A stretch of DNA of 64,000 nt, taken from the NCBI RefSeq assembly GCF_048403405.1, contig NZ_CP183129.1; one strand, written 5' to 3'. Source of the DNA: Escherichia coli. GTDB taxonomy: Bacteria > Pseudomonadota > Gammaproteobacteria > Enterobacterales > Enterobacteriaceae. The first letter of the stretch is position 1. Every line of letters begins with the position of its first letter. A program made the position numbers and the translations under genes. The notes below the pieces were generated by a model. The model did no database searches. It was given only the letters and a program-made list of their open reading frames with translations, and was not told the origin of the DNA. Of the stretch, positions 3,066 through 50,702 are shown one piece after another.

Positions 3066-4157
3066 ATGCGTTTTCTGCGCCGACCAATATCGCTGCGCCA
3101 ACGGCTGATATTGACCATTGGGGCCATTTTGTTGGTGTTTGAGCTGATCAGCGTCTTCTGGCTATGGCATGAAAGTACCGAGCAGATTCAGCTGTTTGAG
3201 CAGGCGCTACGCGACAATCGCAACAACGATCGCCACATCATGCGTGAGATCCGCGAGGCGGTCGCCAGCCTGATCGTCCCCGGCGTCTTTATGGTCAGCC
3301 TGACGCTATTTATCTGCTATCAGGCGGTACGCCGCATCACCCGCCCGCTGGCGGAGCTGCAAAAAGAGCTGGAAGCGCGCACCGCCGACAACTTAACGCC
3401 CATTGCCATTCACAGCGCCACCCTCGAAATCGAAGCGGTGGTTTCGGCGTTAAACGATCTGGTCAGTCGCCTGACCAACACGCTGGATAACGAAAGGTTG
3501 TTTACCGCTGACGTCGCGCACGAACTGCGAACGCCACTGGCGGGGGTGCGTTTGCATCTGGAACTGCTGGCGAAAACGCATCACATTGATGTAGCACCGT
3601 TAGTGGCACGGCTTGATCAGACGATGGAGAGCGTCTCCCAGCTGCTGCAACTGGCGCGTGCCGGACAGTCATTTTCTTCCGGTAATTATCAACATGTAAA
3701 ACTGCTGGAAGATGTCATTCTCCCCTCGTATGACGAACTCAGTACCATGCTCGACCAGCGACAGCAAACCCTGCTATTGCCAGAGAGCGCCGCCGACATC
3801 ACCGTTCAGGGTGATGCAACCCTGCTGCGGATGTTATTGCGAAACCTGGTAGAAAACGCCCATCGTTACAGCCCGCAAGGCAGCAACATTATGATTAAGC
3901 TGCAAGAAGATGGCGGAGCGGTCATGGCCGTTGAAGATGAAGGACCGGGTATTGATGAGAGTAAATGCGGGGAGTTGAGTAAAGCGTTTGTACGTATGGA
4001 CAGCCGTTATGGCGGGATTGGTCTGGGGTTAAGTATTGTCAGCCGCATTACACAGTTGCATCACGGGCAGTTTTTCCTGCAAAACCGGCAAGAGACTTCC
4101 GGCACGCGGGCCTGGGTACGGCTGAAGAAAGATCAGTACGTGGTAAACCAGATATAA
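3066..4157 (+). CDS. basS: two-component sensor histidine kinase
   Basis: ORF-track TTG start 3057 trimmed to ATG 3066 (MRFLRRPISL...), 363 aa; HAMP, H-box (ELRTPLA) and ATPase motifs. Confidence 0.88.
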   Translation: MRFLRRPISLRQRLILTIGAILLVFELISVFWLWHESTEQIQLFEQALRDNRNNDRHIMREIREAVASLIVPGVFMVSLTLFICYQAVRRITRPLAELQKELEARTADNLTPIAIHSATLEIEAVVSALNDLVSRLTNTLDNERLFTADVAHELRTPLAGVRLHLELLAKTHHIDVAPLVARLDQTMESVSQLLQLARAGQSFSSGNYQHVKLLEDVILPSYDELSTMLDQRQQTLLLPESAADITVQGDATLLRMLLRNLVENAHRYSPQGSNIMIKLQEDGGAVMAVEDEGPGIDESKCGELSKAFVRMDSRYGGIGLGLSIVSRITQLHHGQFFLQNRQETSGTRAWVRLKKDQYVVNQI

Positions 4158-4222
4158 AGAAAGCTGCTGACCACCAGCACGCTGAACACGGTAGTTAAAC
4201 TTTCATAAACACGGTTTTTCAT
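4133..4222 (-). CDS. pmrR: small membrane peptide PmrR, 29 aa (MKNRVYESLTTVFSVLVVSSFLYIWFTTY)
   Basis: Hand-translated minus-strand ORF: ATG at 4222-4220, stop TGA at 4135-4133; GGAGG Shine-Dalgarno 5-9 nt upstream; overlaps last 25 nt of basS on the opposite strand; below the 60-aa ORF-track cutoff. Confidence 0.7.
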   Translation of the reverse strand: MKNRVYESLTTVFSVLVVSSFLYIWFTTY

Positions 4223-4226
4223 TGCA

Positions 4227-4252
4227 CTCTCCTCCGTTAACCTGGAGGAGAG
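4227..4252. other. 9-bp stem inverted repeat ctctcctcc-N8-ggaggagag immediately upstream of pmrR
   Basis: Read directly; on the minus-strand RNA one arm is the pmrR Shine-Dalgarno GGAGGAGAG; no T-run on either side. Confidence 0.35.
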
Positions 4253-4292
4253 TATGCGCGTCAGAGATTAAGTGAACCTTAAGACTTCAATT

Positions 4293-6096: not shown

Positions 6097-6975
6097 TTAC
6101 ACCAAATTTACAGAGAAGATTTCCTCGACCATTGCCCCCGCCAGACGCTGCGCTGAACAGAGTCGTGGCATCCCCAGCGCGACAGTTTGCCAGCGTTGGG
6201 TCACTGACCAGCAAACGGGTTGTTTATCTGCCGTGGTCCACTTTCCCAGCCAACTTAAAAAATCAGCATGATCCCCGCCCGTCGGAATGGTCGAAGAGGC
6301 AAACCACTGATGGTAATAGTGACGCGTGGTCGGTGCCGCATTGATACTCTCTGCCAGATGTTGTGTCGCTTTCTCGCGCAAATCACCCAGCAACAACGCC
6401 ACCGCTTGCGGGCTTCCCAGACGGCAGGCATCGCCAAATGCCCCCCAGCGCAACTCCTCCAGAACGATAAAACAGCGCCCAGGCAACGACCAGGCGTTAT
6501 ACGCCCCAGCACGCCAGCGGGTAAAAATTTGCTCGCTCTGTTCACCCGCCTGCACCAGTAGGCCTCGTTGCGTTAACGCCTTTTCCTTCCAGCGACAACG
6601 GGCTGAAAACCACTCATACAAGGCGGCAATTTGCTGGGGGAGCTCCGGGAAAGCAGAGTGCTGGCGGTGATCCATTTTTTGCAGCAGCGCCAGATGCTGC
6701 GCGATCTGCGTCAGCGCCAGATGACCGGGATCCAGCATCGACGCCAGTTTTTCCACCAATGTCAGACGCAGGCTAAGCGGCGCATTTAACATCCCGCCGT
6801 TCGTCCATGCCTGAAGCTGCACACGCGCAAGAAGTTCCTGCATCAGTCGTTCACGAAACTGCTGCTGATGGGTTTGTGGATGGCGGGCATCATCGCCCTG
6901 CGCCAGATCCACTAAAAAGCGCGGATGAACCGACTCCAGCACGCGACCGGGGCCGTCCAGTAACGTCTTGATCAA
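6097..6975 (-). CDS. yjcZ: uncharacterised protein, partner of the dynamin-like yjdA
   Basis: 292 aa ORF; start overlaps yjdA stop by 4 nt (translational coupling); matches K-12 YjcZ length and position. Confidence 0.8.
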   Translation of the reverse strand: MIKTLLDGPGRVLESVHPRFLVDLAQGDDARHPQTHQQQFRERLMQELLARVQLQAWTNGGMLNAPLSLRLTLVEKLASMLDPGHLALTQIAQHLALLQKMDHRQHSAFPELPQQIAALYEWFSARCRWKEKALTQRGLLVQAGEQSEQIFTRWRAGAYNAWSLPGRCFIVLEELRWGAFGDACRLGSPQAVALLLGDLREKATQHLAESINAAPTTRHYYHQWFASSTIPTGGDHADFLSWLGKWTTADKQPVCWSVTQRWQTVALGMPRLCSAQRLAGAMVEEIFSVNLV

Positions 6976-9937: not shown

Positions 9938-9955
9938 TTGTATTGTGATCGGTAA

Positions 9956-10031
9956 GCCGGATAAGGCGCTCGCGCCGCATCCGGCAACGATGCCGACTGC
10001 CTGATGCGACGCTGACCGCGTCTTATCAGGC
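9956..10031. repeat. REP (repetitive extragenic palindrome) pair
   Basis: gccggataaggcgctcgcgccgcatccggc and gcctgatgcgacgc...gcgtcttatcaggc read directly between phnA and phnB. Confidence 0.75.
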
Positions 10032-10096
10032 TTCCCTCTCATCTGTATAAATTTCGAACTACACTTAAGTGGCTTCTCTTAACTGAGGTCACCATC

Positions 10097-21995: not shown

Positions 21996-22313
21996 TCAAT
22001 TTCTCCGCTGCTCTATTGCCGTAATCGCCTCCACGTGTTGTTGATGACGACCGCCTTCGTACTGCGCGCCCAGCCACGCATCCACAATCATTTTTGCCAG
22101 TTCGAGGCCAACCACTCGTGAACCAAAAGCCAGTGCAACTTCACTGGCATAATGCGGATAATCAGTGCGCTCTGACGACCTGGTGTCTTTATCAATCACC
22201 TCACTCATTGACCATGAATAAAAGGCTGGCACAGCAACGCAGAATCCTGCGGTGCCAGCGACATGACCGCCCATTGCTCCGGTACGTTTTTTAATAAAAA
22301 ACACCGGTTGCAT
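21996..22313 (-). pseudogene. rpiB: degraded ribose-5-phosphate isomerase B remnant
   Basis: Translation ends ...FGSRVVGLELAKMIVDAWLGAQYEGGRHQQHVEAITAIEQRRN, matching the RpiB C-terminus as I recall it, and contains SERTDYPHYAS; about 52 internal residues including the ICGTG active-site Cys region are missing and the N-terminal GCDHVG motif reads GGHVAG. Confidence 0.6.
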
Positions 22314-29599: not shown

Positions 29600-29729
29600 A
29601 ATGTCTGCCGCGTGATGGCTGTCACGCGGTATTTCGTTTCGTCACGTCAAAACTGACGACAGCCTGTTTTTCGTCAGAGTTTTGAATAAATAGTGCCCGT
29701 AATATCAGGGAATGACCCCAAATAAAATG

Positions 29730-29745
29730 TGGCATAAAAGATGCA
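29730..29745 (+). promoter_or_regulatory. sigma-54 (-24/-12) promoter of fdhF
   Basis: TGGCATaaaagATGCA, with GG and GC 12 bp apart, 52-67 bp upstream of the fdhF ATG; fdhF is a known FhlA/sigma-54 target. Confidence 0.65.
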
Positions 29746-29796
29746 TACTGTAGTCGAGAGCGCGTATGCGTGATTTGATTAACTGGAGCGAGACCG

Positions 29797-31944
29797 ATGA
29801 AAAAAGTCGTCACGGTTTGCCCCTATTGCGCATCAGGTTGCAAAATCAACCTGGTCGTCGATAACGGCAAAATCGTCCGGGCGGAGGCAGCGCAGGGGAA
29901 AACCAACCAGGGTACCCTGTGTCTGAAGGGTTATTATGGCTGGGACTTCATTAACGATACCCAGATCCTGACCCCGCGCCTGAAAACCCCCATGATCCGT
30001 CGCCAGCGTGGCGGCAAACTCGAACCTGTTTCCTGGGATGAGGCACTGAATTACGTTGCCGAGCGCCTGAGCGCCATCAAAGAGAAGTACGGTCCGGATG
30101 CCATCCAGACGACCGGCTCCTCGCGTGGTACGGGTAACGAAACCAACTATGTAATGCAAAAATTTGCGCGCGCCGTTATTGGTACCAATAACGTTGACTG
30201 CTGCGCTCGTGTCTGACACGGCCCATCGGTTGCAGGTCTGCACCAATCGGTCGGTAATGGCGCAATGAGCAATGCTATTAACGAAATTGATAATACCGAT
30301 TTAGTGTTCGTTTTCGGGTACAACCCGGCGGATTCCCACCCAATCGTGGCGAACCACGTAATTAACGCTAAACGTAACGGGGCGAAAATTATAGTCTGCG
30401 ATCCACGCAAAATTGAAACCGCGCGCATTGCGGACATGCACATTGCACTGAAAAACGGCTCGAACATCGCGCTGTTGAATGCGATGGGCCATGTCATTAT
30501 TGAAGAAAATCTGTACGACAAAGCATTCGTCGCTTCCCGTACAGAAGGCTTTGAAGAGTATCGTAAAATCGTTGAAGGCTACACGCCGGAGTCGGTTGAA
30601 GATATCACCGGCGTCAGCGCCAGTGAGATTCGTCAGGCGGCACGGATGTATGCCCAGGCGAAAAGCGCCGCCATCCTGTGGGGCATGGGTGTAACCCAGT
30701 TCTACCAGGGCGTGGAAACCGTGCGTTCTCTGACCAGCCTCGCGATGCTGACCGGTAACCTCGGTAAGCCGCATGCGGGTGTAAACCCGGTTCGTGGTCA
30801 GAACAACGTGCAGGGTGCCTGCGATATGGGCGCGCTGCCGGATACGTATCCGGGATACCAGTACGTGAAAGATCCAGCTAACCGTGAGAAATTCGCCAAA
30901 GCCTGGGGCGTGGAAAGCCTGCCAGCGCATACCGGCTATCGCATCAGCGAGCTGCCGCACCGCGTAGCGCATGGCGAAGTGCGTGCCGCGTACATTATGG
31001 GCGAAGATCCGCTGCAAACTGACGCGGAGCTGTCGGCAGTACGTAAAGCCTTTGAAGATCTGGAACTGGTTATCGTTCAGGACATCTTTATGACCAAAAC
31101 CGCGTCGGCGGCGGATGTTATTTTACCGTCAACGTCGTGGGGCGAGCATGAAGGCGTGTTTACTGCGGCTGACCGTGGCTTCCAGCGTTTCTTCAAAGCA
31201 GTTGAGCCGAAATGGGATCTGAAAACGGACTGGCAAATCATCAGTGAAATTGCCACTCGTATGGGTTATCCGATGCACTACAACAACACCCAGGAGATCT
31301 GGGATGAGTTGCGTCATCTGTGCCCGGATTTCTACGGTGCGACTTACGAGAAAATGGGCGAACTGGGCTTCATTCAGTGGCCTTGCCGCGATACTTCAGA
31401 TGCCGATCAGGGGACTTCTTATCTGTTTAAAGAGAAGTTTGATACCCCGAACGGTCTGGCGCAGTTCTTCACCTGCGACTGGGTAGCGCCAATCGACAAA
31501 CTCACCGACGAGTATCCGATGGTACTGTCAACGGTGCGTGAAGTTGGTCACTACTCTTGCCGTTCGATGACCGGTAACTGTGCGGCACTGGCGGCGCTGG
31601 CTGATGAACCTGGCTACGCACAAATCAATACCGAAGACGCCAAACGTCTGGGTATTGAAGATGAGGCATTGGTTTGGGTGCACTCGCGTAAAGGCAAAAT
31701 TATCACCCGTGCGCAGGTCAGCGATCGTCCGAACAAAGGGGCGATTTATATGACCTACCAGTGGTGGATTGGTGCCTGTAACGAGCTGGTTACCGAAAAC
31801 TTAAGCCCGATTACGAAAACGCCGGAATACAAATACTGCGCCGTGCGCGTCGAGCCGATCGCCGATCAGCGCGCCGCCGAGCAGTACGTGATTGACGAGT
31901 ACAACAAGTTGAAAACTCGCCTGCGCGAAGCGGCACTGGCGTAA
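29797..31944 (+). CDS. fdhF: formate dehydrogenase H, selenocysteine-containing molybdoenzyme (in-frame UGA at codon 140 is read as Sec)
   Basis: ORF-track ORFs 29797-30216 and 30265-31944 are in the same frame, separated only by TGA 30214-30216 with a SECIS hairpin directly downstream; N-terminal 4Fe-4S Cys motif CPYCASGC; joined length 715 aa. Confidence 0.93.
30214..30258 (+). other. UGA-Sec codon plus SECIS stem-loop
   Basis: tga cacggcccatcggttgcaggtctgcaccaatcggtcggtaatgg read directly; matches the fdhF SECIS as I recall it. Confidence 0.85.
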
Positions 31945-31957
31945 TACAGTCCTTTCT

Positions 31958-31987
31958 ACAGCCTCCTTTCGGAGGCTGTTTTTTTAT
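31958..31987 (+). terminator. rho-independent terminator of fdhF
   Basis: 9-bp stem acagcctcc / ggaggctgt with loop tttc, followed by a run of 8 T. Confidence 0.8.
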
Positions 31988-32037
31988 CCATTCGAACTCT
32001 TTATACTGGTTACTCCCTACCCAATCGTATTATCAAA

Positions 32038-50275: not shown

Positions 50276-50562
50276 TCCGCGCATACAAAACGGGTGGTAA
50301 AAAAAGCAAACGATTATCCGGCGATCATAGCGGCTTTTTCAACCGAAGTTTGCTGCTTTTTTCTCTTTTATTGTCTTGACGATGAAAAACCAGGCAATTG
50401 ATGCGCAAACGTTATCGTCGATGCGCAAGATTGCAGCGTTATCGAGCCGCATACCGTTCAGGATTGCGATAAAAAATCGTCTGAGATGACAAAAATATTG
50501 CGGCTAAAAAGTGTACTTTTACACTGGCGAAGAAACGCCGGTGACATACAATTAAAGCATCA

Positions 50563-50702
50563 ACACCAACCGGAACCTCCACCACGTGCTCGAATGAGGT
50601 GTGTTGACGTCGGGGGAAACCCTCCTGTGTACCAGCGGGATAGAGAGAAAGACAAAGACCGGAAAACAAACTAAAGCGCCCTTGTGGCGCTTTAGTTTTG
50701 TT
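50563..50702 (+). ncRNA. ryjA: candidate small RNA convergent with and overlapping the soxR 3' end (position of K-12 ryjA)
   Basis: Plus-strand intrinsic terminator (stem aaagcgcc / ggcgcttt 50673-50693, then uuuaguuuuguu) with no plus-strand CDS upstream; 5' end is a guess from the ~140 nt length I recall for RyjA. Confidence 0.4.

Follow-up and report, generated by a model that had tools for sequence, protein, structure and literature searches.

The window analysed here, a 64,000-nt stretch of E. coli DNA, almost certainly carries an intact copy of fdhF on its plus strand (29797-31944), which encodes formate dehydrogenase H (FDH-H) and in which the UGA at codon 140 is recoded as selenocysteine (Sec), with a SECIS element lying downstream. 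Nothing observed argues against this reading. Within the formate hydrogenlyase complex, FDH-H is the subunit that oxidises formate. Its gene serves as the prototype for bacterial selenoprotein genes, and the fdhF SECIS as the reference for SelB-dependent recoding. The first-pass annotation of this DNA had described the locus as established biology rather than a novel finding, and we agree: fdhF is a textbook case that was already known, the result adds nothing new to biology, and its practical value lies in annotation.

The list of open reading frames divided the gene into two plus-strand ORFs, one at 29797-30216 (139 amino acids) and one at 30265-31944 (559 amino acids). The starts of these ORFs lie 468 nt apart (156 × 3) and are therefore in a common frame, and translation of 29797-31944 as a single unit gave 716 codons with one internal stop, the TGA at 30214-30216 (codon 140), in addition to the terminal stop. 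The ORF list and this translation bear out the earlier reading of the region as one frame split by TGA 30214-30216 alone, and the sequence that had been quoted as following the TGA was found, letter for letter, at 30217-30260. The second ORF begins at 30265 because the ORF tool resumes at the first ATG past a stop. Besides being the only internal stop, UGA codon 140 (plus strand) stands opposite residue X140 of the PDB chain and is kept as TGA in at least 58 genomes, and we read it as selenocysteine. Two minus-strand ORFs that run over the site (29833-30246 and 30147-30521) were rejected as mechanical ORFs lying antisense to a conserved gene.

The identity of the gene product was established with a protein query in which Cys was put in for Sec at residue 140. 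Residues 1-715 of the joined product aligned with phmmer to residues 1-715 of the PDB chains named 'formate dehydrogenase H' (1AA6, 1FDI, 1FDO, 2IV2 and 7Z0T; 1667 bits), with only two differences: a conservative A390V substitution, whose codon is GTA at 30964-30966, and residue 140, at which the PDB chain has a non-standard X opposite the UGA codon. The same Cys-substituted product matched the NCBIfam equivalog TIGR01591 over residues 6-685 with 1096 bits (cut-off 666.25). The earlier proposal of a single 715-aa selenoprotein, carrying Sec at residue 140 when the joined translation is aligned to formate dehydrogenase H, is upheld by this end-to-end match, in which only A390V and residue 140 depart from identity, together with TIGR01591, the SECIS and the Sec genes described below; for the fdhF coding sequence at 29797-31944 (715 amino acids plus stop), RefSeq likewise annotates one CDS at the corresponding coordinates in TUM14771 and K-12. 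The genes around the site run in the order mdtO - mdtP - fdhF - yjcO - gltP - nrfG.

Other features of the protein fit the same enzyme. An N-terminal cysteine motif, read in the translation as CPYCASGC...LCLKG and encoded at 29818-29922 (plus strand), comprises C8, C11, C15 and C42 of the [4Fe-4S] domain, residues that are probably the cluster ligands, as established for FDH-H, and Pfam PF04879 (Molybdop_Fe4S4) is on record for the 139-aa fragment. Sec140 is presumably the molybdenum ligand, as in the FDH-H structures 1AA6 and 1FDO. Near-identity to the characterised enzyme suggests that the product would carry a bis-MGD molybdenum cofactor and oxidise formate within formate hydrogenlyase.

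The full SECIS element lies at 30209-30263 (plus strand) and consists of an outer 5-bp helix, a lower stem and an upper stem-loop. It matched the Rfam family RF01988 (SECIS_2) at model positions 1-55 of 55 at 87.1 bits, where the gathering score is 70 (E = 1.8e-17 over the window), and at minimum free energy (MFE; −19.7 kcal/mol) the 55 nt were predicted to fold into exactly the Rfam consensus structure. In the outer helix, 30209-30213 pairs with 30259-30263, bracketing the UGA. The upper stem-loop at 30228-30244 (plus strand; GGUUGCA-GGUC-UGCACC) is the predicted SelB-binding core, with the loop GGUC at 30235-30238 and one U of 30230/30231 bulged; its pairing (GGU-U-GCA / GGUC / UGC-ACC) has the bulged U and the GGUC loop of the fdhF prototype. 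The minimal SECIS is the upper stem-loop, a 17-nt element with nucleotides G23, U24 and U17, and the core at 30228-30244 would be the SelB contact. The GGUC loop starts 18 nt past the UGA, within the range of 16-37 nt after the UGA given for the apical loop of bacterial SECIS elements (PMC10778597). Comparison of the fold after the UGA with the published fdhF SECIS, as had been recommended, gave a match above the RF01988 gathering score and base-for-base equality with K-12. A match to RF01989 (SECIS_3) was rejected, since at 35.8 bits it fell far under the gathering score of that family (63).

The earlier statement that the sequence after the UGA can fold into a stem-loop was correct as far as it went, but folding alone proved to be weak evidence. 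The 49 nt from the TGA form a hairpin of −14.9 kcal/mol with GGUC as its apical loop, and the stability of this 49-nt hairpin was not unusual (MFE z = −0.49), with 54 of 200 shuffled sequences folding equally well. Homologues with cysteine at this position (Cys-type) fold just as readily: the mean MFE of the 55-mers was −18.9 kcal/mol for the UGA-type genes versus −19.3 kcal/mol for the Cys-type genes (p = 0.83). Stability was rejected as a SECIS criterion on both grounds. Ordinary coding sequence rich in G+C would pass a stable-hairpin test just as a SECIS does; what distinguishes the two, when Sec-type and Cys-type genes are compared, is the specific loop and stem or constraint at synonymous sites.

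For this comparison, 100,044 species genomes were scanned for the motif CCARV[U/C]HGP with synonymous positions left free, which returned at least 120 stretches. The matches listed included 58 TGA sites and 63 TGY sites, and the TGA-type genes listed came from Enterobacterales and Pasteurellales, from Escherichia to Haemophilus. The core RCA-GGUC-UGY was present in 58 of 58 UGA-type genes and in 0 of 62 Cys-type homologues among the matches listed, the latter denominator being the homologues with enough flanking sequence.

Covariation within the element was thin because the element is nearly invariant. In the 32 distinct SECIS sequences compared, 91.3% of cells were paired, versus 23-50% when the partners were slid, and both partners had changed in a single pair, where G-C became U-A in six distinct sequences, all from Pasteurellales loci. 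Pair-counting measures of covariation stayed within the range of shuffled data (reached by 385 of 500 shuffles), whereas the percentage paired and the covariation score did exceed the shuffles. In the six Pasteurellales sequences, the bulge appears to have moved by one base, with U-A becoming A-U one column over. The same near-invariance was seen within E. coli, in which the 55-mer was 100% identical in 5,411 of 5,420 records; in contrast, the best match of the 2.5-kb region was below 99% identity in 1,474 of the 5,420 records.

With so little variation in the element, covariation could not carry the argument, and we turned to synonymous diversity, with the Cys-type genes as a control. Codons 146-149 (GCA GGT CTG CAC) had zero synonymous diversity in the UGA group only; in the Cys group, codons 146-148 encode the same residues (A-G-L) with a synonymous diversity of 0.59-0.75, and the flanking codons were alike in diversity in the two groups. 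Averaged over codons 144-155, synonymous diversity was 0.169 in TGA-type genes, compared to 0.472 in the rest of the 200-codon region, and the corresponding values for Cys-type genes were 0.590 and 0.502. Among 189 sliding windows of 12 codons in the TGA group, the six lowest all began at codons 138-144. We conclude that, by synonymous-site diversity with a Cys-type control, the RNA is under constraint beyond the requirement of the protein.

The constraint on synonymous sites reached past the upper stem-loop, to codons 139, 141-142, 144-145, 151-153 and 155, which correspond to the lower stem and the outer helix spanning the UGA, and the outer helix was 99.4% paired, with C-G to U-G or G-C to G-U as its only pair changes. 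It is possible, although we hold this view only tentatively and consider it less probable than its converse, that the extended helix has an additional conserved role, such as masking the UGA from RF2 or timing SelB delivery, rather than merely stabilising the core.

If the TGA were instead a true stop, fdhF would be a pseudogene, or the locus would hold two genes of 139 and 559 amino acids. The mechanical ORF list does split the gene in this way, as many gene callers do, and both exact fragments have been deposited separately, on at least 1,000 contigs each. Nevertheless, genomes as far apart as Escherichia and Haemophilus, at least 58 in number, have the TGA at the same codon, a match to the curated SECIS model follows directly after the TGA, RefSeq has a single CDS, and the crystallised protein is a single chain of 715 residues with a non-standard residue at 140. 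The sequence past the UGA is also under purifying selection. Over codons 157-279 of 54 TGA loci, amino acid identity to the window averaged 0.82, 68% of the nucleotide differences were in the third position of a codon, and no additional in-frame stop occurred in 53 of these 54 loci, which were those with enough flanking sequence. Taken together, the downstream identity, the third-position bias and the open frames rule out a pseudogene, and we regard a true stop at codon 140 as effectively refuted, with scarcely any probability left to it. The one locus of the 54 with a further stop is an extra copy, frameshifted, in Cedecea neteri.

A different objection is that the UGA is read through without Sec, by near-cognate tRNA-Trp or tRNA-Cys or by leaky termination, so that an ordinary residue would be placed at position 140. 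No result of this analysis favours such readthrough. The Cys-type homologues with the same motif (63 TGY loci listed) indicate that Cys is compatible with the fold. Such readthrough would nevertheless leave unexplained a SECIS that is specifically constrained in UGA-type genes alone, and a construct that lacks the SECIS is the published control for Sec-independent misreading of UGA (PMC4513850). Furthermore, selA, selB, selD and tRNA-Sec are all present in the close relative TUM14771 described below. We consider Sec-free readthrough extremely improbable, and selenocysteine at codon 140 is the reading adopted here.

The genes for Sec synthesis and insertion lie outside the window, in which we found no tRNA genes and none of selA, selB, selC or selD, and they were located in a nearly identical genome. 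The window is E. coli chromosome and has 8 mismatches to E. coli TUM14771 (NZ_CP128875.1, 3612579-3676578, reverse complement) over its 64,000 bases. Around fdhF, a stretch of 25 kb is shared at 100% identity with TUM14771, GN02461 and MS 69-1, and no more than 9 of about 5,430 records come to 99% identity over this stretch. The RefSeq annotation of TUM14771 places selB at 3046400-3048244, selA at 3048241-3049632, tRNA-Sec (selC) at 3125013-3125107 (also called by ARAGORN, as tRNA-SeC with anticodon tca) and selD at 996494-997537. A search for these genes elsewhere in the genome had been advised, and all four are present in this relative, 8 of 64,000 bases removed from the window. Three of them are nearly universal in the species: among 5,426 complete E. 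coli genomes, K-12 selAB found a match in 5,425, and so did selD. For the fdhF query region (window 29600-32100), the number of E. coli genomes with a match was 5,419.

From what is established about the bacterial Sec pathway, we infer how recoding would proceed at this locus. SelD would make selenophosphate, and tRNA-Sec (selC, anticodon UCA) would be charged with serine and converted to Sec-tRNA-Sec by SelA and selenophosphate. The specialised elongation factor SelB, in its GTP form (SelB·GTP), would carry Sec-tRNA-Sec, and the C-terminal winged-helix domains of SelB would bind the GGUC loop and the bulged U of the hairpin 3′ of the UGA, a SelB-SECIS hairpin interaction that has been put to use (PMC7590224). 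The tethered SelB would bring Sec-tRNA-Sec to the A site at the UGA in competition with RF2, and recoding of UGA 30214-30216 would yield selenocysteine-140. Where recoding failed, the 139-aa fragment would be released.

The sequence upstream of fdhF contains candidate signals for its expression. A sigma-54-type -24/-12 element (TGGCAT-N5-ATGCA; TGGCATAAAAGATGCA) lies at 29730-29745 (plus strand), 52 nt upstream of the fdhF ATG, and this was the single match to the pattern TGGCAYNNNNNWTGCW in the whole 64-kb window. The match was not significant by itself, with 0.47 matches expected by chance in the window and at least one match in 38 of 100 shuffles. Expression of fdhF is known to be FhlA- and sigma-54-dependent and formate-induced (PMC11291172). 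From its position and this prior knowledge, 29730-29745 is the putative sigma-54 promoter of fdhF, and the element fits the known control of the gene by FhlA and sigma-54. A Shine-Dalgarno-like GGAG, 8 nt ahead of the ATG at 29785-29788 (plus strand), could serve as the ribosome binding site, judging from the letters of the sequence.

The expectation of two fragments or a pseudogene from automated annotation held for naive gene callers but not for RefSeq, which annotates one CDS of 2,148 nt and does so without a pseudogene flag in both TUM14771 and K-12; some records name this CDS 'formate dehydrogenase H subunit alpha, selenocysteine-containing'. Some deposited entries identical to the 139-aa or the 559-aa fragment carry GenBank accessions and are called 'formate dehydrogenase subunit alpha', and the fragments occur as an adjacent pair of gene calls in four sampled assemblies. 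Plain ORF calling splits fdhF or makes it a pseudogene, and public protein collections already contain the split form widely. The gene should be annotated as a single selenoprotein of 715 aa, with codon 140 entered as a translation exception.

Compared to known systems, the element in the window is a regular member of the RF01988 family, which it matches over the full model and with a predicted MFE structure equal to the family consensus. It departs from the family at position 2, where the window has U and C is the commoner base, giving a U-G rather than a C-G pair in the outer helix; 12 of the 32 distinct SECIS sequences likewise have U-G here. The Cys-type FdhF-like paralogues of Enterobacterales and other Proteobacteria share the active-site motif CCARV-x-HGP with FDH-H and often occur in one genome together with the Sec-type gene. 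Over 200 codons, their ungapped amino acid identity was mostly ∼58-71%, with lower values (38-41%) in five distant MAG loci. They differ from the gene in the window in that they have a Cys codon in place of the UGA, the GGUC upper stem-loop in none of 62 cases and free synonymous variation over the SECIS codons.

The closest known system is K-12 fdhF (b4079), which lies in the same locus order (mdtP - fdhF - yjcO - gltP in both) and has 99.02% nucleotide identity to the gene in the window. The two copies differ at 21 nucleotides, of which 20 are synonymous and one produces A390V. UGA140 and the SECIS are identical in the two, and since 0 of the 21 differences fall inside the recoding signal, the published recoding experiments were done on a SECIS identical to that in the window. 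In those experiments, UGA140 is followed by a SECIS that encodes residues 141-153, and the efficiency of recoding in vivo was 30-40% (PMC4513850). Both SelB binding and Sec insertion have been demonstrated for the identical K-12 sequence (PMC4513850; PMC7590224).

Among the matches listed in our scan of species genomes for the motif CCARV[U/C]HGP, many Enterobacterales genomes carried both Sec-type FdhF-like genes (TGA at the selenocysteine position) and Cys-type FdhF-like genes (TGY at that position), with the motif CCARV-x-HGP common to the two. Such pairs included the listed stretches L011/L012, L126 (sites at 6258 and 11896, + strand) and L067/L068, together with many others. The Sec-type and Cys-type genes of Silvania hatchlandensis were 5.6 kb apart on the same strand, and those of Hafnia paralvei were separated by about 12 kb on a single contig.

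Two homologues had unusual features. The Cys-type gene of H. paralvei (L068, around 1670-1720, + strand) contained GUUGCA-GGCC-UGCAAC at the position of the SECIS, the RNA hairpin that follows the UGA in Sec-type genes, a segment whose two arms would pair perfectly over 6 bp, leaving a GGCC loop and no bulge. The predicted hairpin may have arisen by chance or may be a relic of a Sec-to-Cys conversion. In Cedecea neteri, a TGA-type gene (L103) had an intact SECIS and a frameshift about 60 codons past the UGA; two further copies were present in the same genome, L104 (TGA-type, intact) and L102 (Cys-type), and the frameshifted gene is either a decaying duplicate or the product of an assembly error.

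The FdhF protein encoded in the window differed from that of K-12 and from crystallised FDH-H at residue 390 only, where Val (codon GTA, 30964-30966) replaces Ala. Upstream of fdhF, GTCAC/GTCA motifs recurred on the + strand within 29617-29680, 5′ of the sigma-54-type motif, and inspection of the sequence identified a perfect inverted repeat, CGTCA-AAAC-TGACG (29645-29658, + strand). The distance from this region to the -24/-12 element downstream of it is about 75-115 nt, which corresponds roughly to the location described for the upstream activating sequence that serves FhlA at fdhF.

Elsewhere in the window, three Rfam matches exceeded their own gathering scores: the sRNA STnc630 (4126-4291, - strand), the nucleoid-associated naRNA4 (9955-10032, + strand) and sraL (50559-50699, + strand), which is just downstream of soxR in the near-identical genome of E. 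coli TUM14771 (NZ_CP128875.1). RefSeq annotation of that genome also places a partial "hypothetical protein" pseudogene, lacking its C-terminus, between tyrB and aphA (window 59613-59975).

The lineage to which the window belongs is uncommon within E. coli: among about 5,430 records, just 9 matched it at ≥99% identity over 25 kb. Across the whole window (1-64000), TUM14771 differed at eight positions (1780, 10261, 13025, 46457, 46661, 47795, 48635 and 51874). In the annotation of TUM14771, the sole feature between yjcS and yjdP/phnP was a 105-aa "RpiB/LacA/LacB family" remnant (window 21996-22313, - strand). In contrast, E. coli K-12 has at this position the genes alsK-alsE-alsC-alsA-alsB-alsR, spanning about 6 kb, together with a complete rpiB of 149 aa, and thus the D-allose operon appears, from this comparison of gene content, to be absent from the lineage of the window.
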